Positions 19,318 through 61,711 of a DNA stretch of 64,000 nt are shown piece by piece. A program made the translations under genes and the position numbers. How positions within the stretch are numbered: position 1 is the first letter of the stretch; each line of letters begins with the position of its first letter. The stretch is from a candidate division WOR-3 bacterium (GTDB taxonomy: Bacteria; Hydrothermota; Tepidihabitantia; Tepidihabitantales; Tepidihabitantaceae). A model generated the notes under the pieces. The model ran no database searches, had not been told where the DNA came from, and worked only from the letters and a program-made list of their open reading frames with translations. The stretch spans positions 193,339-257,338 of the forward strand of contig JBDRTY010000002.1 in assembly GCA_039801085.1 (NCBI GenBank). The letters are read 5' to 3'.

Positions 19318-19438
19318 CAGATGAGCATAAGTCAAACTTGAGCCCAAGTCAAGCCGTTGCGGAGGAAGGCGGTCGTGTCCCAATGAGATCGTATTGACTG
19401 AGCCCTAAAGCAGATTATCTTTGTTGTGGAGGTGCAAG

Positions 19439-22177
19439 GTGAAGCGACTGATTTTAGCTGTTATCTGGGTCAGCCTGACACTGGGTTCAACCCGGGCGTT
19501 ACCGGCGCGTGACAGGCGTCCGCCATTCCGTCCACGGCATCAGCTGAAACAAAGCGGTTTGAATTCAGTCCGGTTCTGGAAGGAGAAATGGTTTGCACAA
19601 AAGCCAAGCAGAGTAACATCAGTGGGGGCGGTTTACAGTCGGATCCGGAAATTTCAGCTCCAGGAATTTCCCTTTGATACCACGGTTGTCCTAGGCCCCG
19701 GTCCCGGGGAAGAGGATTTTGCCGATGTCGCCTTTGATGGTACAAACTTCTTTGTCGTCTGGATGGATTACGAGCAGGGAGAGATTTCGGGTGCCCGCAT
19801 CCGGCCTGACGGGGTGATGATCGACACGACGCCGATTCAGATATCATTCGGCTCCTGGGGCGGAGAGTATCCGGCAGTGGCATTTGACGGCGCAAATTAT
19901 CTGGTGGTCTGGACCGACTGGCGCAATTCTGATCCGGATATTTACGGTGCTCGGGTGACACCTCAGGGCCAGGTGCTGGACCCGGACGGGATTCCGATCT
20001 CCACCGCACCGGAGATGCAGACGTTACCAGCGGTGCTCTTTGACGGGACAAGGTACCTGGTTGCCTGGAGTGATTTGCGGAGTGGCAACTGGGAGTCGGA
20101 TATTTATGCGGCACGGGTGAGCACCGGTGGTGAGGTGCTGGACCCGGACGGAATTCCGGTTAATACTCAGCCCTATGACCAGATTATCTATCACGGTCTG
20201 GCGTTTGACGGCACCAATTACCTTTTTGTCTTTTCAGATGACCGGGATGGCGATCTGTATTACGATGTCTATGGTACCCGGATGAGCACCGACGGTGTGG
20301 TGCTGGACAGTTCGGGTTTTATTATTTCAGCGGAAAATAATGACCAGGCGTTGCCCCGGGTTGGATTTGACGGTACTAACTATCTTGTTGTCTGGTTTGA
20401 TGATCGGGAGGCGGTTGAGGATTACCGGGTTTACGGTGCGCGCATTCAGCCTGATGGCACAATTCTGGACCCGCAGGGTATCAGATTGAGTGATTATTTG
20501 AGTGTTTATCCGGCAGTGGCGTTTGACGGCACCAACTACCTTGTTACCTGGCTGGACTACCGTTCCGGCTGGCAGGCGGATATTTATGGAACCCGGGTGA
20601 GCACTGGTGGTGTGGTGCTGGACAGTGCCGGTATCCCGGTTTCGGCAGAGCCCGAATACGACCAGGTGCTGCCGGCGGTGGTTTTCGGCGGTGGCAGATA
20701 CCTTGCGGTCTGGTCTGATTTCCGGAATTATGAGGGACCGGACATCTACGGTGCGCGAGTTGATACAAGTGGTCAGGTGCTTGACCCGGATGGGGTTCTA
20801 ATTTCCTGGGGAATTATCAGTCCGACCCAGTATGCACCGGTGGCTGCCTTTGACGGCACCAATTATCTGGTGGTCTGGGAGGATTACCGGAACGGAGATG
20901 ATGGGGATATTTACGGTGCGCGGGTGACACCTCAGGGGCAGATTCTTGATCCCGAGGACATTCCGATCGCCACCGGCTGGCAGTATCAGTATTCACCGGC
21001 AATAGCCTTTGACGGAACCAACTTTCTTGTAGTCTGGGTTGATGAGCGGAACGGCTCTCAGGATATTTATGGGGCACGGGTGAGCACTAATGGTGAGGTG
21101 CTGGACCCGGACGGAATTCCGGTTGCAGTTGATGAGTATTACAAGTATCATCCCCAGTCGGGTTTCAACGGTGAAAATTATCTGGTGGTCTATGAGCTTC
21201 ACGACTGGGTCGAAGATAAGCATGACATCTATGGGGTGCGGGTGACACCGGATGGAAATGTGCTGGGAATGGAGGCAATTGCCGGTTTTGACGGCTGGCA
21301 GAGTTATCCTGCGGTTACTACCGGTGCTGAAACTCTGCTTGTTGTCTGGCAGGATGAACGGGATACAACCGGCAGTGCCGACATCTACGGTGCCCGCATT
21401 ACTTCCGATGGTGAGATACTGGATCCGGAGGGGATTCCAGTCAGCACTGCGGAAGATTATCAGTTATTTCCGGATGTGGTTTCCGGCAATGGTGGCTACT
21501 TTGTGGTGTGGACTGATAGCCGGAGCGGTAATTATGATGTTTACGCAGCCCGGGTGACCGCAGATGGCGATGTGCTGGATCCGGATGGTATTGCCATTTC
21601 CAGTAATGAGTATGATCAGTTCTATCCCCGGGTTGAGTATTACAGACCGTTCTGGTTGGTTGTCTGGCGTGATTACTACAATCAGGAAAACATGGATATC
21701 TTTGGTGCCCGGGTTGATTTGAATGGGCGGGTTCTGGACCCGCAGGGGATTGAGCTGATCAACCAGCCGTATGATCGCTACCTTTCCGATATTACAACCG
21801 GCTCGGGCCAGTTGCTGCTTACATTTGACGGCTATGTAGCGGATTATTTCACCAACAAGGCGCTGGGTGCGTTCTGGAATCCGGTTGGAGTTGCCGAAAG
21901 ACCGGAGGGCAGGTCCGCGCGGACTGAACTGCGCCTGCTCGGCAATCCGGTGCGCAATCGGCTGGAGCTGGAGGTGAAATTGCCTCAGACCGGACGGTTC
22001 CGGCTGGAACTGCTGGATGCTGCAGGCAGACAGGTGCGGGTGGTGCACACAGGTGAGCGGAATGCTGGCACGGCAAGAATGAATTTTGATCTCCGGGACC
22101 TGAATGCCGGTGTCTATTTTCTGAAACTGAGCGGTTCCGGGATAAAGTTAAGGCAGCGGTTTACACTGTTGAGGTAA
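19439..22177 (+). CDS. Giant secreted repeat protein (about 16 tandem about 55-aa blades) with T9SS C-terminal sorting domain
   Basis: The GTG start at 19439 has a GGAGG SD 6 nt upstream, followed by a signal peptide. The recurring unit is FDGTNYLVVW.D.R.G..DIYGARV...G.VLDP.GI.VS. The C-terminus (VYFLKLSGSGIKLRQRFTLLR) is a T9SS CTD. Confidence 0.75.
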   Translation: MKRLILAVIWVSLTLGSTRALPARDRRPPFRPRHQLKQSGLNSVRFWKEKWFAQKPSRVTSVGAVYSRIRKFQLQEFPFDTTVVLGPGPGEEDFADVAFDGTNFFVVWMDYEQGEISGARIRPDGVMIDTTPIQISFGSWGGEYPAVAFDGANYLVVWTDWRNSDPDIYGARVTPQGQVLDPDGIPISTAPEMQTLPAVLFDGTRYLVAWSDLRSGNWESDIYAARVSTGGEVLDPDGIPVNTQPYDQIIYHGLAFDGTNYLFVFSDDRDGDLYYDVYGTRMSTDGVVLDSSGFIISAENNDQALPRVGFDGTNYLVVWFDDREAVEDYRVYGARIQPDGTILDPQGIRLSDYLSVYPAVAFDGTNYLVTWLDYRSGWQADIYGTRVSTGGVVLDSAGIPVSAEPEYDQVLPAVVFGGGRYLAVWSDFRNYEGPDIYGARVDTSGQVLDPDGVLISWGIISPTQYAPVAAFDGTNYLVVWEDYRNGDDGDIYGARVTPQGQILDPEDIPIATGWQYQYSPAIAFDGTNFLVVWVDERNGSQDIYGARVSTNGEVLDPDGIPVAVDEYYKYHPQSGFNGENYLVVYELHDWVEDKHDIYGVRVTPDGNVLGMEAIAGFDGWQSYPAVTTGAETLLVVWQDERDTTGSADIYGARITSDGEILDPEGIPVSTAEDYQLFPDVVSGNGGYFVVWTDSRSGNYDVYAARVTADGDVLDPDGIAISSNEYDQFYPRVEYYRPFWLVVWRDYYNQENMDIFGARVDLNGRVLDPQGIELINQPYDRYLSDITTGSGQLLLTFDGYVADYFTNKALGAFWNPVGVAERPEGRSARTELRLLGNPVRNRLELEVKLPQTGRFRLELLDAAGRQVRVVHTGERNAGTARMNFDLRDLNAGVYFLKLSGSGIKLRQRFTLLR

Positions 22178-22791: not shown

Positions 22792-22912
22792 CGTGTAGGT
22801 TAGATTATCATACGCAATCTGAAGTTCAAGTCATGTCATATATAACACAATGAATTGACAAGACAAGAAGGGTAGATTATTATAAAATTAAAAATAAAAG
22901 GAGGTTTTAGCT

Positions 22913-23170
22913 GTGCCTAGGAAATCAGTTAAAAGTTTAGGGATAAACGCCAATCTCAGATGTCTTAAAGTTTATCCCTCAGCTCGTACTAAAAAGCAAA
23001 TTCAGGATCTTCAGACAATAGGTATTAAATTGTCTAGAGATCAAGCTTTTCATTTGGCAAAAGCACTTTTGGCTGCTAGCAAAGCATGGAATGAAATCGA
23101 CATTACTGTCTACAGGTTAGAGCCTAGACAGTCGGACGGGACATATCACGTAACAGTGACATCTAAATAA
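22913..23170 (+). CDS. Small hypothetical protein (85 aa), AT-rich
   Basis: An ORF with a GTG start is preceded by AAGGAGG. No domain is recognised. Confidence 0.4.
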   Translation: MPRKSVKSLGINANLRCLKVYPSARTKKQIQDLQTIGIKLSRDQAFHLAKALLAASKAWNEIDITVYRLEPRQSDGTYHVTVTSK

Positions 23171-23903: not shown

Positions 23904-23939
23904 TTGACAGTGACCCGAAAGCTATTAGTATATTTTGGT

Positions 23940-25553
23940 ATGGCACATCCGGCAAATAAGAGGCAAGCGCAGAGATGTTCTATTTGTCAAAATACGGTTT
24001 ATAATGGACTGGGCAAGCACATCATTAATAATCACGGATATGAGTCATTCAAAAGGATAATATTAAAAGCAAGGACATCTGGGGCTTCAGATGCTGAATT
24101 AGGCCAGCGCTTCGGGATTAATTTGCGTCAGCTTGAAAAAATTATCCTCGAATCCTACGGGTTGAATATTTCCGGATTAGTGCAAGTACAAAAGTCGATA
24201 AAGTGCTTGGAACCTAAAGATTTTAAAGAGGAAACAACAACAGTTTGGAGTTTCAAACAGCGAGGAAATTGGGCAACACATAATGGTAAATACCGGGGTA
24301 ACTGGTCGCCTTATATACCGAGAAATGTAATCTTGAAATACTCAAAGCCGGGGGATTTGGTACTGGACTATTTTGCTGGGAGCGGAACGACAGCAGTTGA
24401 AGCTAAGCTTCTTGGCAGAAGATGTATAGCGATAGATATCAATCCGGCATGCGTTGCGCTTACTAAACAACACCTTGATTTCAGTCTACCTTCAAATTTG
24501 TTTTCTGACAAAATATCGGCTTTTGAGCCCGAGGTTCGAGCAGGTGATGCCAGAAATCTGGGCTGGATGTCTGACGAGAGCGTAGACCTTATTTGCGCTC
24601 ATCCTCCTTATGCGGGGATTATAAAGTATGGTTCGGACATCGATGGTGACCTATCAAACTTGGATATCGATGAATTTCTTTTAGAAATCGGGAAAGTTGC
24701 CCGGGAGAGCTACCGGGTGCTCAAGCCTGGTGGTAAATGTGCGATTTTAATTGGTGATACCAGAAGAAAAAAACACATTCTGCCGCTGGGATTTCAGACA
24801 ATCGATGTTTTCCAGAAAGCCGGATTCAGATTGAGGGAGCTGGTGATTAAGCGCCAGCACAACTGTAAAACTACCGGTTTCTGGTATGATAAGAGCGTGC
24901 AATATAATTTCCTGCTGTTGGCACATGAGTACTTGCCGATTTTCGAGAAAGTTCAGGGATCTTTTCCAGCAGTAATGCGAGAAGCCCGTTCAGCTGCTAT
25001 TTCCTCATATGACTGGACGCACAGAAAGTTCCCCGTTGCTAAAGTTAATGAACTTGAGGTCAGCACAGTATGGACTTTTCAGGAAAAAGTGTTGGAGGAG
25101 CAACTGAATGAAAATGTATTTAAGCGTTATGGGAAAGGTAAAGTCCGGCTGACTGTCTATATTAATCCTCTCCCTAGTAATTCCACCTTTTCGGAATTGA
25201 AGGTTAAGAAAAGTGCCGGGTTGCTGTTTATCAAGGCGAATTCACTCCAGCGACCTGAGTCCAGGGTAGAAGTTGAACAGTATATGAAAACGATAGAGGC
25301 GGTTGTTGATCAGCAATTACCGCATATAGCACCTGATGGTTATCTAGTTATTCAAGTGAAAGACGTCAGGGTTACGGGTTACATCGAACCAATGGCTAAA
25401 AACATCATTAGCTTACTTAAGAAAAATCAGCGATTGTGGTTAAAGGAAATTGTTATTGTTGTCGCTAGTAATCAAGACGAAACGAGTCCGAAATCTGATA
25501 GTGCAGAGCTTGAAATTGTGCACCAATACCTGCTGATATATGATGTAAAATAG
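23940..25553 (+). CDS. DNA methyltransferase (N4/N6 amino-MTase, PF01555-like) with permuted motif order, N-terminal C2H2-like/HTH extension and about 200-aa C-terminal domain
   Basis: Motif I is DLVLDYFAGSGTT (about aa 150). Motif IV is ICAHPPYAG (about aa 232), followed by RVLKPGGKC...W.D...........HE. A degenerate second TVWTF block lies at about aa 380. The N-terminus has CSIC-x10-H-x4-H. The start is ambiguous between the TTG at 23904 and the ATG at 23940. Confidence 0.75.
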   Translation: MAHPANKRQAQRCSICQNTVYNGLGKHIINNHGYESFKRIILKARTSGASDAELGQRFGINLRQLEKIILESYGLNISGLVQVQKSIKCLEPKDFKEETTTVWSFKQRGNWATHNGKYRGNWSPYIPRNVILKYSKPGDLVLDYFAGSGTTAVEAKLLGRRCIAIDINPACVALTKQHLDFSLPSNLFSDKISAFEPEVRAGDARNLGWMSDESVDLICAHPPYAGIIKYGSDIDGDLSNLDIDEFLLEIGKVARESYRVLKPGGKCAILIGDTRRKKHILPLGFQTIDVFQKAGFRLRELVIKRQHNCKTTGFWYDKSVQYNFLLLAHEYLPIFEKVQGSFPAVMREARSAAISSYDWTHRKFPVAKVNELEVSTVWTFQEKVLEEQLNENVFKRYGKGKVRLTVYINPLPSNSTFSELKVKKSAGLLFIKANSLQRPESRVEVEQYMKTIEAVVDQQLPHIAPDGYLVIQVKDVRVTGYIEPMAKNIISLLKKNQRLWLKEIVIVVASNQDETSPKSDSAELEIVHQYLLIYDVK

Positions 25554-25565
25554 AAGGAGGCGATA

Positions 25566-26150
25566 GTGATACATGAACCCAGAGTTGGCGATTTCTGGGG
25601 TAGAGGCCGTTTCCGGAAAAAGATTAGAGAAGTAATTACTCTTTCTAACGGTTGGTATCTGATTAAGACCGATGATTCAAAGTCAGAGCGAGATTTCAAG
25701 GTTAAAGTAATTTTTCAGGTTCAACCTTCAAGGTCGATGACTCCCAAACATGCCCACTTTGCGATTGACTTATATGGCAAAATTTGCGCCGATCAGAGTC
25801 GCGCAAGAAAACTCCTTGATGCGATAATTGAAGTATGGGCCGGCAAGGATGTAAGAGAAGTGATTACTAAATACCAACATGACTGTTACGGACTGCCTGG
25901 ATATCCCCTAGAATATGTCCTTCACGCACTGAACTGGATTTTAGAGCAGGAAGACTTGAATTTTACCGGACGCCCGGCAAGAAAACAGGAGGAGCTGGAC
26001 ATTATTTGTGAAAAGCAGGGAATTAATCTCCTTCCAAGCAGGAAAGGGAGTCACTTGGCGATTGCTTTGCTCTGTGATATTATGAATGGTACGCATCCGG
26101 TTGAGGCACTGCTTAAAGCTAATATCGATGTAGCTCCCCGACTGGCGTAA
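25566..26150 (+). CDS. Hypothetical protein (194 aa), co-operonic with the MTase
   Basis: It has a GTG start with an AAGGAGG SD, 12 nt after the MTase stop. A weak D..D-F-K (PD-(D/E)xK-like) pattern is not convincing. Confidence 0.5.
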   Translation: MIHEPRVGDFWGRGRFRKKIREVITLSNGWYLIKTDDSKSERDFKVKVIFQVQPSRSMTPKHAHFAIDLYGKICADQSRARKLLDAIIEVWAGKDVREVITKYQHDCYGLPGYPLEYVLHALNWILEQEDLNFTGRPARKQEELDIICEKQGINLLPSRKGSHLAIALLCDIMNGTHPVEALLKANIDVAPRLA

Positions 26151-26633
26151 ATGCTGAATATGCGGAGGTCCTGGCAGGAGAAATTAAGGAATAGTAAGGA
26201 TTTGCCTAAGGTGGTTGAAATTACGCCGAAGATGGCGGGAAAATGGGGGACAAAGCCGGGTGATACGGTAGTGATTCCGGCGCCGATTGAGGTTGATGAG
26301 ATTATGAGGATGGTGCCGAAAGGCAGGCTCATCACTATTAATCAGATTCGGGAAATTCTGGCAAAGAGGCATAAGGCAACCATCGGCTGTCCGATTACCA
26401 CCGGTATCTTTGCCGCTATTGCTGCCCGCGCGGCTGATGAGATGGCAAAAGAAGGCAAGCGGGATTTTACCCCTTACTGGCGGACACTGAAACAGGGAGG
26501 AGTGATTAACGAGAAATATCCGGGCGGAGCAGAGGCGCAAAAGAAATTCTTGGAAAATGAGGGGCATAAGGTGGTGAAGAAGGGCAGGAAATTTGCTGTA
26601 TTGGATTATGAGCAGAAATTGCTGCGGTTGTAG
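26151..26633 (+). CDS. MGMT/ATL-fold (O6-alkylguanine-DNA alkyltransferase-like DNA-binding domain) protein lacking the catalytic cysteine
   Basis: Its ATG is 1 nt after the previous stop. It aligns to the Ogt/Ada C-terminal domain: VPKGRLITINQIREIL matches IPCGQVMHYGQLAEQL; AARAAD matches AARAVG; TPYWRTL matches VPCHRVI (Cys becomes Tyr, His becomes Trp); KYPGG matches GYAGG; and KKFLENEGH matches KEWLLRHEG. Confidence 0.55.
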   Translation: MLNMRRSWQEKLRNSKDLPKVVEITPKMAGKWGTKPGDTVVIPAPIEVDEIMRMVPKGRLITINQIREILAKRHKATIGCPITTGIFAAIAARAADEMAKEGKRDFTPYWRTLKQGGVINEKYPGGAEAQKKFLENEGHKVVKKGRKFAVLDYEQKLLRL

Positions 26634-59486: not shown

Positions 59487-59774
59487 TCAGGAGCCGGAAA
59501 CCGGGATGACCGCCGGAACCGGAGTCAGATTCTCAAAATCCACCAGATAGAGTGCGCAGCGAATCCGGCTGTCCGGAAAATCCGGACCGAGGCGCAGCTG
59601 AAGCCGGACTGCGGCGGTGAGCTCGTCAAGATGGTTGTTGATCACCGATTGGGTCGAATCGGCCTTGACCTCACCAATCAGATAATAACATGGAACCGGC
59701 TGTTCGGGGTCAAAAAAGAGGACCTGAAAGGTTTTCATTTTTTTAAATTGCGAGATGGCTGAGATTTTTGCCAT
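59487..59774 (-). CDS. Small hypothetical protein (95 aa) overlapping the 3' end of the nuclease gene
   Basis: It is a GC-rich ORF with no recognisable domain. Confidence 0.35.
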   Translation of the reverse strand: MAKISAISQFKKMKTFQVLFFDPEQPVPCYYLIGEVKADSTQSVINNHLDELTAAVRLQLRLGPDFPDSRIRCALYLVDFENLTPVPAVIPVSGS

Positions 59775-60816
59775 TTAACAATATGCTAAAGTTATTAGAT
59801 TGTGCCTCTTGTTTTAGTAATTTTAAAATATCGCGCTGATGCGGCTTAAGTGCTTGAGGTTTGAATTGACAACCGCTTGTTAGTTTAAGCATAGGGGACG
59901 GTAGATATTTTTGATCCCCGATCCGCACATTTTTAAGATTCACAAGAAGAATCATCTTCAATAACCCATCCTTGATGTCGTCAATAGATGGAATAACGTT
60001 ATTACGGCTGTGCTTGCATTCAATCAACCGTATTTTTCTGTCACGGAGTTCAACTTCATCACAGGTGAAATAATACATCCCCCCAAGGTAATTTCTAATA
60101 GTCAATGTTGCCTTTTTGCCAGAAACTGATTCTTTGGGTTGAATAGTTACGCTTTCTCGATATTGAGCATGCTGAGCCTTGGTCCGTGATGCAGCGATGA
60201 AATTTTCCCGTCCCCTACTTAATTCACTAATTATTTTTTGCGCGCTTTCTGTTGAGTGCATCTGCACCCCAGTTTGTTCAGATATTGTTTTATATGCTCT
60301 TAATGCGCGGTGTGCAATTATGCCAACCTGCTCCAGCTGTTCTAAATTCCAGTGCAAGGCATCGGACTGATATGATAGAAGTTTGTTAATTTCTCGGAGG
60401 ATGTGGTTTATTGCAAAACGCTGGTTTGTAATTTTATTTTTGTAATTTATATTGCGTTCTGCATTATCATAGTAGGAGATTATAACATAAACCCCTAAAA
60501 GACTCATCAAGGAAACGGTATCCCACTGGAGAAAATCCCGGTCACCATCAGCACCCTCATCCTTGTAAACCGGGATTATGGTAATCTTGCGACCCGGGAA
60601 ACTTAATGTATCATATACGCGAGCATAAGGATAAGAGCGGGTTCGTTTTGGTGAAACCCACCAGCTGACCGCTAATTGGTTCTGGCTTTTGAATGTAATG
60701 AGGAAAGCGCCCTGCTGTTTTAACGCTTCGCCAATACTCTGAAACAAGTAAGATTTCAATTCACGGGTAAGATAAGGTTTATATTTAAGTCCGGTGATTT
60801 CAGCTGATACATCCAT
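59743..60816 (-). CDS. Putative Type II restriction endonuclease (PD-(D/E)xK candidate)
   Basis: It overlaps the upstream MTase gene by 17 nt. It is AT-rich (about 38% GC). A candidate catalytic triad is ...TCDEVEL...IECKHS. No other domain was found. Confidence 0.5.
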   Translation of the reverse strand: MDVSAEITGLKYKPYLTRELKSYLFQSIGEALKQQGAFLITFKSQNQLAVSWWVSPKRTRSYPYARVYDTLSFPGRKITIIPVYKDEGADGDRDFLQWDTVSLMSLLGVYVIISYYDNAERNINYKNKITNQRFAINHILREINKLLSYQSDALHWNLEQLEQVGIIAHRALRAYKTISEQTGVQMHSTESAQKIISELSRGRENFIAASRTKAQHAQYRESVTIQPKESVSGKKATLTIRNYLGGMYYFTCDEVELRDRKIRLIECKHSRNNVIPSIDDIKDGLLKMILLVNLKNVRIGDQKYLPSPMLKLTSGCQFKPQALKPHQRDILKLLKQEAQSNNFSILLNGKNLSHLAI

Positions 60817-61711
60817 ACTTTCCGCCTTTGCGTATTATTATTTCAAATGTATCACCATGATGGTCCATTGTCATTTGTCCTGAAAAACCTAACTTTTTTG
60901 ATATTATCGGTAAAAGCGATTTCTTGATTTCAATTCCAATGCTATTACGACCCAACTGCCGTGCAACCTTCATTGTTGTTCCACTGCCGACAAATGGGTC
61001 AAGCACGGTTTCACCAACATAAGAGAAGAGTTTGATAATTCGGTAGGGCAGTTCCTCTGGGAAGGCGGCAATTTCCTTTTCAAGGGGAGAGCCGGGGAGG
61101 ACATTTACCATTTCCCAGAGAGTCATGTACCACTTGTTATCAGAAAATTCTTTTAAATTGATCCGCGATGCTTCTCTGATTTCACGAGGTATTGTTTGAT
61201 AATTAAATTTCCCTTTTTGAAATATAATAATGCTTTCAAGCAGGTTGTCGGGATAAAAATACATGGGGTATGGATTTTGCAGTATTACGCCACTTCTTCG
61301 GCTAATTCGCAAATAGCCGTCAGGTTTTTTCCAAATGATCCGGTCTCGGTATCGGAAACCAACGCTTTGGAATATTTTAATTGCATCAGCGACAATGGGA
61401 AATTTTTCGCCGTTAACAAGCATGTCATCAATGTTTAACACCGCAATCCGACCTTCTTGGAGTACGCGAAAAGTTTCTTTGGCCATTCTTCTGAGTACCC
61501 CCAAATACTGGCCATAGTTTTTAAATAACCCTTTGTAATCAAATGGAGCATTGAAATAAGGTGGCGATGTAACCATTAGATGCACACTTTGGTCGGGGAT
61601 TTCGGGCATTGCCATACAGTTGCCGATGATTAGTTTATGATGGGTTTTGGGGTAAATGTGATCAAACTCAAACTTTGGGGAAACGGTATTATTCTTAGTT
61701 TTAATGTCCAT
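60800..61711 (-). CDS. Beta-class N4/N6 DNA methyltransferase (PF01555)
   Basis: Motif IV (MVTSPPYFN) is N-terminal and motif I (VLDPFVGSGTT) is C-terminal. The middle region is RVLQEGRIAVLNIDD...IIWKK. It is AT-rich. Confidence 0.85.
   Translation of the reverse strand: MDIKTKNNTVSPKFEFDHIYPKTHHKLIIGNCMAMPEIPDQSVHLMVTSPPYFNAPFDYKGLFKNYGQYLGVLRRMAKETFRVLQEGRIAVLNIDDMLVNGEKFPIVADAIKIFQSVGFRYRDRIIWKKPDGYLRISRRSGVILQNPYPMYFYPDNLLESIIIFQKGKFNYQTIPREIREASRINLKEFSDNKWYMTLWEMVNVLPGSPLEKEIAAFPEELPYRIIKLFSYVGETVLDPFVGSGTTMKVARQLGRNSIGIEIKKSLLPIISKKLGFSGQMTMDHHGDTFEIIIRKGGKYGCIS

Follow-up and report, generated by a model that had tools for sequence, protein, structure and literature searches.

The beta class of DNA methyltransferases places the catalytic motif IV first, a recognition domain in the middle and motif I, with its S-adenosylmethionine (SAM)-binding loop, last. 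A 64-kb stretch of DNA from a candidate division WOR-3 bacterium (positions 1–64000; hereafter the window) carries at 23940–25553 (+) a gene for a DNA methyltransferase that is closest in sequence to this class and does not follow its order, and a second gene of 194 codons, which we call the partner, begins 12 nucleotides (nt) after its stop. What kind of methylase this is, which site it modifies and what the partner does are the questions raised by the locus. Here we report that the protein consists of a complete methyltransferase core with the two halves of PF01555 swapped, a degenerate second copy of this core and an N-terminal accessory domain. The methylase must be read together with the partner, and we hold, with moderate confidence, that the two genes are a horizontally acquired Type II restriction–modification (R–M) module that probably acts on GATC and includes a pseudo-enzyme domain. 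The elements of the module are as follows.

23940–25553 (+): methyltransferase gene, 537 residues (NCBI identity, PF01555, PADLOC MTase_II, AlphaFold2)
23940–24209 (+): N-terminal accessory domain, residues 1–90 (sequence, AlphaFold2, ligand co-occurrence)
24210–24959 (+): predicted active methyltransferase core, residues 91–340 (swapped PF01555 halves, invariant residues, Foldseek)
24960–25550 (+): degenerate core copy at the C terminus, residues 341–537 (hhalign, weak PF01555, AlphaFold2)
25566–26150 (+): partner gene, 194 residues, candidate restriction endonuclease (position, conserved linkage)

The mechanically called open reading frame (ORF) that reaches 25553 starts at TTG 23904, and ATG 23940 gives 537 residues plus the stop codon; the NCBI protein 'MAG: DNA methyltransferase [candidate division WOR-3 bacterium]' is 100% identical to this product over its full length. 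Residues are numbered here from the ATG. An earlier, first-pass annotation of the locus gave approximate residue numbers that mixed the two starts, which leaves its substance unaffected. The low G+C (GC) content that it took as a sign of foreign origin is borne out: 42.4% for the methylase and 44.3% for the partner, against 55.9% for the whole window. A related WOR-3 genome (locus L006), in which the methylase is 78% identical, shows an equal GC contrast and the same gene layout, namely MarC, endonuclease V, methylase, partner and an MGMT-like gene.

The methylase scores 114.1 bits against PF01555 (N6_N4_Mtase; cut-off 26.7; E = 1.2e-32) in three stretches. The top stretch, residues 92–176, aligns with profile positions 133–220, the C-terminal third that carries FxGxG, and residues 189–340, scanned alone, align with positions 1–87, from motif IV onward. 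A comparison with the solved beta-class enzyme TTHA0409 (2ZIE) gives the same picture (residues 190–303 with chain positions 15–135, residues 127–184 with 225–282), as does the window's own beta-class enzyme at 60800–61711 (−), in which residues 30–182 align with residues 202–353 of the methylase (E = 7e-10) and residues 221–277 with residues 126–182 (E = 2e-9). The SAM loop FAGSG (residues 145–149; 24372–24386) precedes the catalytic HPPY (residues 221–224; 24600–24611), in agreement with the first-pass annotation, which had noted ahead of motif IV a motif I block that canonical enzymes, including the one in the same window, carry at the C terminus. Along the core lie the TVWSF block (24240–24254), FAGSG, HPPY, RVLKPGG...GDTR, the KRQHNCKTTGFWY loop and AHEYLPIFEK, and residues 91–340 run in the order X-I-II-III-IV-V-VIII. 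Class-I methyltransferases ordinarily run in this order, in which the PF01555 halves are swapped. Motif IV departs from the classical (D/N/S)PP(Y/F/W) in that PPY is kept and the first residue is histidine; both HPPY and F-x-G-x-G are present in 85 of 85 relatives. Because PADLOC and PHROG models and the short relatives described below share the rearranged order, it is a family trait that is already present in curated model sets: PADLOC MTase_II PDLC03376 (REBASE-derived, 249 positions) aligns colinearly and end to end with residues 84–337 (E = 1.9e-94, 314 bits), and two phage DNA-methylase PHROGs also match colinearly.

The gamma class runs from a SAM-binding region through a catalytic region to a C-terminal recognition domain. 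In the window methylase motif I does stand before motif IV, and PF02384 (gamma-class N6_Mtase) gave no match at E values up to 1; the C-terminal domain, where a known recognition domain would have spoken for a standard order, is a degenerate methylase copy. The AlphaFold2 model of the whole protein is confident, single and compact (predicted local distance difference test (pLDDT) 82.4, predicted template-modelling score 0.84), with domain packing and zinc-ligand clustering judged from secondary structure, confidence and covariation. It contains one complete seven-strand domain and, C-terminal to it, another alpha/beta domain (pLDDT mostly 88–96) in which a single strand stands for β1–β3.

The second domain is a copy of the first. 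In an alignment of 54 family members (A1), the columns of residues 90–340 and those of residues 341–537 match with an hhalign probability of 96.4% (E = 1.2e-9) over 168 colinear columns, from TTTVW to HEYLPIFEK, whereas unrelated alignments gave less than 1% and 20 column shuffles at most 1.8%. Residues 341–537 alone match PF01555 weakly (profile positions 24–104, E = 0.007). In the pairing of core with copy, TTTVWSF faces STVWTF (TVWTF block, 25065–25079), DLICAHPPY faces LLFIKANS (FIKANS, 25227–25244, where the core has CAHPPY), RVLKPGGKCAILIGDTR faces HIAPDGYLVIQVKDVR, RELVIKRQ faces KEIVIVVA and AHEYLPIFEK faces VHQYLLIYDV, with HQYLLIYDVK replacing the core's HEYLPIFEKV; PDGYLVIQVKDVR stands where the core has KPGGKCAILIGDTR. 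The copy lacks the motif I–III segment, FxGxG and HPPY. The degenerate TVWTF block without FxGxG that the first-pass annotation had pointed out is therefore real, and of its two suggestions, a circular permutation or a fused pair of methyltransferase halves, the permutation stands and is family-wide, whereas the second block is a degenerate duplicate of the whole core and not a complementary half; the two are separate events. Judged from the sequence, the architecture is that of one full enzyme plus a pseudo-enzyme. We also considered two active methylase domains and rejected this, as the second copy is without motifs I and IV. Within A1 the copy has invariant residues of its own (W378, N392, L428, D475, R477, P484, E503, L524, H528, Y530 and L531), which indicate purifying selection; it is a conserved pseudo-enzyme rather than decaying sequence.

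At the other end of the protein, the CSIC-x10-H-x4-H segment (23976–24035), which the first-pass annotation had likened to a zinc knuckle followed by a helix-turn-helix (HTH)-like stretch, reads C13-x2-C16-x10-H27-x4-H32 and fits the C2H2-type ligand pattern C-x2-4-C ... H-x3-5-H, with a spacer of 10 residues against the classical 12. In the AlphaFold2 model the knuckle lies on a β-hairpin (residues 11–20) and a helix (residues 24–32) at a pLDDT of about 90, within an N-terminal domain at 81–92. Of the 54 members of A1, 41 have the complete set of four ligands and the other 13 have none of them, with deletions at the cysteine positions and Q or K instead of the histidines; a genuine metal site would be expected to show such all-or-none behaviour. 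Residues 34–73 form a three-helix HTH-like bundle that is kept even in the clade without the knuckle. The profile evidence consists of weak matches to HTH_23 (residues 39–69, E = 0.005) and to zf-Di19 (E = 0.05), the latter being the only Pfam hint of a zinc finger.

The family is large and patchily spread. A protein search with the methylase returned 2,889 matches, the top 120 of which are all full-length, 52–79% identical and drawn from many phyla. When one genome was scanned for each species, at least 585 bacterial and archaeal species genomes proved to carry a relative, among them Thermotogae, Chloroflexota, Nitrospirota, Patescibacteria, Omnitrophota, Planctomycetota, Archaeoglobus, Thermofilaceae and Asgard archaea, and nearly all of the matches listed are 46–57% identical to the window protein. 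Some relatives consist of the core only: Caldarchaeum proteins of 319–325 residues (53% identical over residues 92–337, with THPPY) and a Fusobacterium protein of 244 residues (55.5% identical). The N-terminal domain is missing from these 244–325-residue forms. The zinc/HTH domain and the dead copy thus look like additions of the long forms, which on this sequence comparison are the derived state. Proteins of 296 residues from conjugative plasmids of Vibrio, Photobacterium and Neisseria (for example, WP_069541838.1), named 'DNA adenine modification methylase', share the chain order, HPPY, KxQHNC and AHE..L.F.K with the window methylase at about 28% identity over residues 99–420; they differ in being single-domain, without the zinc/HTH domain and the dead copy, and apparently have no nuclease partner.

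The partner starts with GTG, preceded at 6 nt by the Shine–Dalgarno sequence AAGGAGG. Its 425 homologues, in bacteria and archaea, are all called 'hypothetical', and several share contigs with methylase matches. The AlphaFold2 model (pLDDT 91.8) has four strands followed by seven helices. The invariant residues (D43, H62, H64, D68, Y70, K72, Q128, E129, D130, N132, R136, R159, S162 and N186) are a polar set of enzyme-like character. A profile search against 1.84 billion representatives gave 83 matches, none with an informative domain apart from a few N-terminal zinc ribbons.

Among 80 genome loci, nearly all that leave room for a further gene have an ORF on the methylase's strand that abuts or overlaps the methylase stop; at a few, the downstream genes are housekeeping ones only. 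The families found in this position are listed below, together with the observed/expected ratio of GATC in the DNA flanking the module (second-order Markov model, loci grouped by partner type).

Window's partner superfamily (AB, including a second type, B), directly downstream: 32 of 80 loci; GATC 0.40 (346 observed, 861 expected)
Family of 400–466 residues (C2; ~400–466 in the GATC grouping), no annotation: 15 of 80 loci; GATC 0.34
DpnII-family restriction enzymes (PF04556; PADLOC REase_II; L079, E = 6.5e-35): 10 of 80 loci; GATC 0.36
PD-(D/E)XK_11 nucleases: 6 of 80 loci; GATC 0.58
Family of ~360 residues (C5), no annotation: 5 of 80 loci; GATC 0.37
Family of ~190 residues (C6), no annotation: 3 of 80 loci; GATC 0.55
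Loci without a conserved partner: GATC 0.74

Homology among these partner families was considered and rejected, with hhalign probabilities all below 2%. The partner types do not separate on a neighbour-joining methylase tree but are thoroughly interleaved; the clade of the window methylase has a long branch there. The DpnII-family endonuclease (PF04556) is absent from the window and present in the 10 related loci and in Fusobacterium; at L034 a DpnII-like gene occurs without any other methylase nearby. At L001–L003 the module lies among AlwI, MjaI, BsaWI and other R–M genes together with an integrase.

Several features of the partner superfamily were seen in passing. Type-B partners are 81–86% identical between L001:7551–8108, L004:7796–8350 and L005:7880–8395, whose sources are assigned to different phyla (an Acidobacteriota metagenome-assembled genome, a Chloroflexi metagenome-assembled genome and a third metagenomic source); putative restriction enzymes are not usually so alike, and either a very recent spread or strong constraint is indicated. 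At L013, L019, L038, L044, L051 and L061 the methylase is followed by tandem partner paralogues, a divergent A-like one and then a type-B one, an arrangement that hints at a heterodimeric or two-component nuclease. L004 and L005 have a zinc-ribbon gene of 63–66 codons between methylase and partner, and some remote partner homologues carry a zinc ribbon fused to the N terminus.

DpnII-family enzymes cut GATC, and the Fusobacterium vincentii cluster, which comprises a D12-class Dam-like methylase (E = 8e-63), a DpnII restriction endonuclease (E = 4.7e-109), an Mrr-like protein and, last, the short HPPY enzyme, resembles the two-methylase DpnII/MboI cassettes. The second methylases of such GATC cassettes are DpnA (M2.DpnII) and M.MboIC. 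The Fusobacterium HPPY enzyme thus occupies a like slot, beside a Dam-like methylase and a DpnII-family nuclease, whereas in the 10 other genomes the long HPPY form is the sole methylase beside the DpnII-family nuclease. The HPPY family differs from DpnA-type enzymes, which follow the normal beta order, and from their DPPY motif; the only match to a DpnA-named chain in the PDB is weak and local (5HEK, E = 0.006, residues 126–181). A Fusobacterium preprint characterised the Dam-like GATC methylase and not the HPPY enzyme.

A single specificity throughout the family is supported by the interleaving of partner types on the methylase tree and by the candidate DNA-reading loops at residues 105–129 and 304–323, which are invariant in the long forms of A1, the window's included. 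GATC itself is favoured by its depletion: loci with AB partners are more depleted than those without a conserved partner (p = 0.006) and do not differ from DpnII loci (p = 0.97), in a comparison of short flanks from uncultured genomes with only 8 control loci and no phylogenetic matching. Depletion across partner types fits a GATC restriction imposed by all partners. Elsewhere, strong type-A loci have a pooled ratio of 0.53, some reaching 0.12–0.31. In the window the ratio for the flanks is 0.73; within the module, 3 GATC sites stand where 11 are expected. Recent acquisition of the module would reconcile the modest depletion of the window with that of the family.

The anatomy of the domains, with their rearrangement and duplication, the spread of the family, its linkage to partners and the GATC depletion are what these observations show: a complete SAM-dependent amino-methyltransferase core of PF01555 ancestry in a conserved two-gene unit. 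From them we propose the following mechanism. SAM would be bound by FAGSG together with D166, the acid of motif II, and the GDA (D203) of motif III, and the invariant H221-P-P-Y224 would receive the flipped target base, most likely the adenine of GATC, giving N6-methyladenine. Two invariant loops, RGNWATH..YRGNWSPYIPRN and KRQHNCKTTGFWY, would read the DNA; they are assigned this role because the minimal 244-residue relatives have no separate recognition domain. The dead C-terminal copy, predicted to be unable to bind SAM, would replace the second subunit of a beta-class dimer and help to hold the DNA. The zinc knuckle and HTH may be an optional extra DNA-binding module and may autoregulate the operon, a role that N-terminal HTH domains play in several Type II methylases. 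The 194-residue partner would cut unmethylated sites.

Known systems offer partial parallels. The beta-class PF01555 enzymes (TTHA0409/2ZIE, M.RsrI, M.MboIIA, CcrM and the product of 60800–61711) are the closest sequence matches, and share with the window methylase a W..F/H..P block before FxGSGTT, an xPPY after an sVDLi strand, RVLKPGG...GD and, presumably, transfer to an exocyclic amino group. They differ in running from IV to I with D/N/SPPY, whereas the window methylase runs from I to IV without an intervening recognition domain, has HPPY and adds a dead copy and a zinc/HTH domain. It has been argued that dimerisation is a requirement of beta-class enzymes (PMC7544214; PMC9852454). In METTL3–METTL14 and the ciliate MTA1–MTA9, a catalytic fold pairs with a degenerate one that aids substrate binding (PMC7544214; PMC9852454); there the two are separate chains of a different family in the beta order, whereas here they are fused in one chain. 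By analogy, we infer an intramolecular active/inactive pair formed through residues 341–537. A literature search on pseudo-dimeric DNA methylases found nothing specific. M.MwoI (delta) and M.TvoORF1413P (zeta) are permuted beta-derived methylases according to Bujnicki 2002, as cited in PMC3874165; as far as that citation describes them, they are a precedent for PF01555-type rearrangement having occurred more than once, and are set apart from the window methylase by their class names alone.

A stronger version of the proposal would make the partner, its relatives and the three further unannotated partner families GATC endonucleases of unseen fold, the dead copy a single-chain counterpart of METTL3–METTL14, and the uncharacterised HPPY the site of catalysis. 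We put this forward tentatively and regard it as possible but on the doubtful side.

Several results weigh against a GATC-specific R–M module, in addition to the thin sampling behind the GATC comparison. The partner matched nothing in Pfam, NCBIfam, PADLOC or PHROGs; its model had no structural match below E = 1e-3 in the PDB and BFVD, and its profile none among PDB sequences. Its putative nuclease activity is deduced from position, because it has no recognisable nuclease motif or fold. For a motif IV that begins with histidine instead of D/N/S, no characterised precedent was found in the literature, where a full-text search returned Hippo-pathway papers only. A search near and upstream of the methylase for an operator-like inverted repeat, which autoregulation might call for, found none. 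Finally, the palindromes avoided in the window do not by themselves single out GATC: over the 64 kb its ratio is about 0.72–0.73, eighth among 4-bp palindromes, and the most avoided are ACGT (9 observed, 39 expected; 0.23) and GGCC (128 observed, 427 expected; 0.30).

This last result speaks for a Type II methylase with a target other than GATC, the family having several specificities and the partner cutting, for example, ACGT or GGCC. The long branch of the window's clade would suit such a divergence, and 50–55% identity is no guarantee of equal specificity. Yet the loops that are candidates for DNA contact are invariant in all 54 aligned relatives including the window's, sister methylases take DpnII or AB partners interchangeably, strong type-A loci elsewhere are GATC-depleted and the module itself is poor in GATC. 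A second R–M system in the window can also explain another avoided site, and we consider a different target unlikely, though a serious contender. That second system is a two-gene module at 59743–61711 (−) with 40% GC. Its methylase, at 60800–61711 (−), is the canonical beta-class PF01555 enzyme of 303 residues, with TSPPY near the N terminus and FVGSGTT near the C terminus, and is possibly of the N4-methylcytosine type; its stop overlaps the start of a 357-codon ORF without a Pfam match, which is probably a restriction enzyme. The avoidance of ACGT and GGCC suggests that other restriction systems are active in the genome, one of which may be this module.

Alternatively, the methylase could be an orphan or regulatory enzyme and its 194-residue neighbour a reader, regulator or repair factor, for instance with a MutH-like methyl-directed function. 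The missing nuclease signature of the neighbour would agree with this, as would the repair genes around the module (endonuclease V upstream and the MGMT-like gene downstream, both syntenic in the related WOR-3 genome), the divergent MutS neighbour at L005 and the few loci with only housekeeping genes downstream. But true restriction enzymes fill the partner's position in other genomes, and the adjacency of endonuclease V, MGMT or MutS is not kept beyond single lineages. The flanks are as depleted of GATC as those of DpnII loci, which implies cutting pressure, and the family is patchily distributed, the module's GC is foreign and at some loci it lies in defence islands. An orphan methylase therefore strikes us as improbable.

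A mis-annotated RNA methyltransferase (tRNA or rRNA guanine-N2, Trm11/RlmKL-like) or protein methyltransferase is suggested by the top Foldseek match, to Trm11 m2G10 enzymes (E = 6.6e-11), which is colinear with the seven-strand class-I fold, and by colinear matches to TIGR01177 (E = 7.6e-9) and to UPF0020 (PF01170; a borderline 22.9 bits against a cut-off of 22.3). Trm11 (6ZXV, 5E71) and UPF0020 proteins do have the chain order of the window methylase, motif I and then xPPY, a motif that Trm11-type enzymes also use, and some Fusobacterium homologues are named 'TRM11 family'. Foldseek, however, aligns sequentially, so beta-class enzymes cannot align along the chain and the ranking reflects colinearity, not closeness; the weak TIGR01177 and UPF0020 matches likewise arise because the chain runs in class-I order. 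TIGR01177 is far under its cut-off (35.3 bits against 316.55), UPF0020 is overlapped by the far stronger PF01555 match, and DNA-methylase similarity, at 114 bits for PF01555 and 314 bits for PADLOC MTase_II, dwarfs both. Identity to Trm11 is 22%, no THUMP or other RNA-binding domain matched the whole protein or residues 1–95, and the Trm11 translation-gene context is replaced by operons with restriction enzymes and a patchy distribution, all of which makes an RNA or protein substrate very improbable. In the duplication model of circular permutation, tandem beta-class genes fuse and both ends are trimmed. That the protein is an intermediate frozen on this route is hardly credible even though two tandem PF01555-related copies and a rearranged order are what that model invokes (PMC7544214), because the second copy is colinear with the already rearranged first (an X-like block before IV–VIII-like ones), so that the duplication post-dates the rearrangement, and because single-domain relatives of the same order occur in archaea, Fusobacterium and plasmids, the long form being derived.

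We therefore retain the GATC-specific R–M module as our reading of 23940–26150. Ahead of it lies one further element.

23904–23931 (+): promoter-like site TTGACA-16-TAGTAT (consensus scan, 10 of 12 matches, pattern match only)

The site stops 8 nt before the ATG and may be the module's own promoter, giving a leaderless or near-leaderless mRNA. A functional link of the module to endonuclease V or the MGMT-like gene was considered and rejected, the adjacency being kept within WOR-3 only; because these two genes are not found beside family members elsewhere, we take them to mark the insertion site. The MGMT-like gene itself (26151–26633, +; 160 residues) starts directly at the partner's stop and is 89% identical to a truncated 118-residue gene at L006. 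Its match to the O6-methylguanine methyltransferase DNA-binding domain is weak (E = 3e-4), and it has PYWRT at the position of the PCHRV acceptor cysteine, as in an alkyltransferase-like protein without the cysteine. Between MarC and endonuclease V lies an 85-codon ORF (22913–23170, +; 38.8% GC) without a family match; it is preceded by the best promoter-like match of the region (TTGACA-17-TATTAT, 22855–22883), and the matching interval at L006 is without a called gene. Farther upstream, 19421–22177 (+) encodes 918 residues made up of a much-repeated motif with FDGTNYLVVW...D..DIYGARV at its end; at L006 the orthologue has a weak Por secretion-tail match, and the product is probably a secreted, β-propeller-like surface protein. 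At another locus, L030, a 361-codon ORF (L030:1677–2762) upstream of an MjaI-type system and an HPPY methylase/DpnII pair has both a Type I HsdR N-terminal nuclease-like region (E = 6e-9) and a stretch that weakly matches the SeqA C-terminal domain (E = 5e-4). The SeqA C-terminal domain binds hemimethylated GATC, and the L030 protein could be a methyl-GATC-directed enzyme.

The methylase family seems to be annotated only generically and to be uncharacterised, and what seems new here is the single-chain pair of active and dead copies, the invariant HPPY and the set of unannotated partners. Pfam shows the rearranged domain as split, out-of-order matches, which are easily misread in genome annotation. 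If our reading is right, the architecture of a family present in at least 585 species genomes would now be defined, with GATC as its probable target and HPPY as its diagnostic motif. One conserved methylase standing beside at least six unrelated downstream families, four of them unannotated, would be a handle for finding new restriction-enzyme folds. The protein itself would be a natural single-chain pair of an active and an inactive methyltransferase, and would bear on the claimed need of beta-class enzymes to dimerise.

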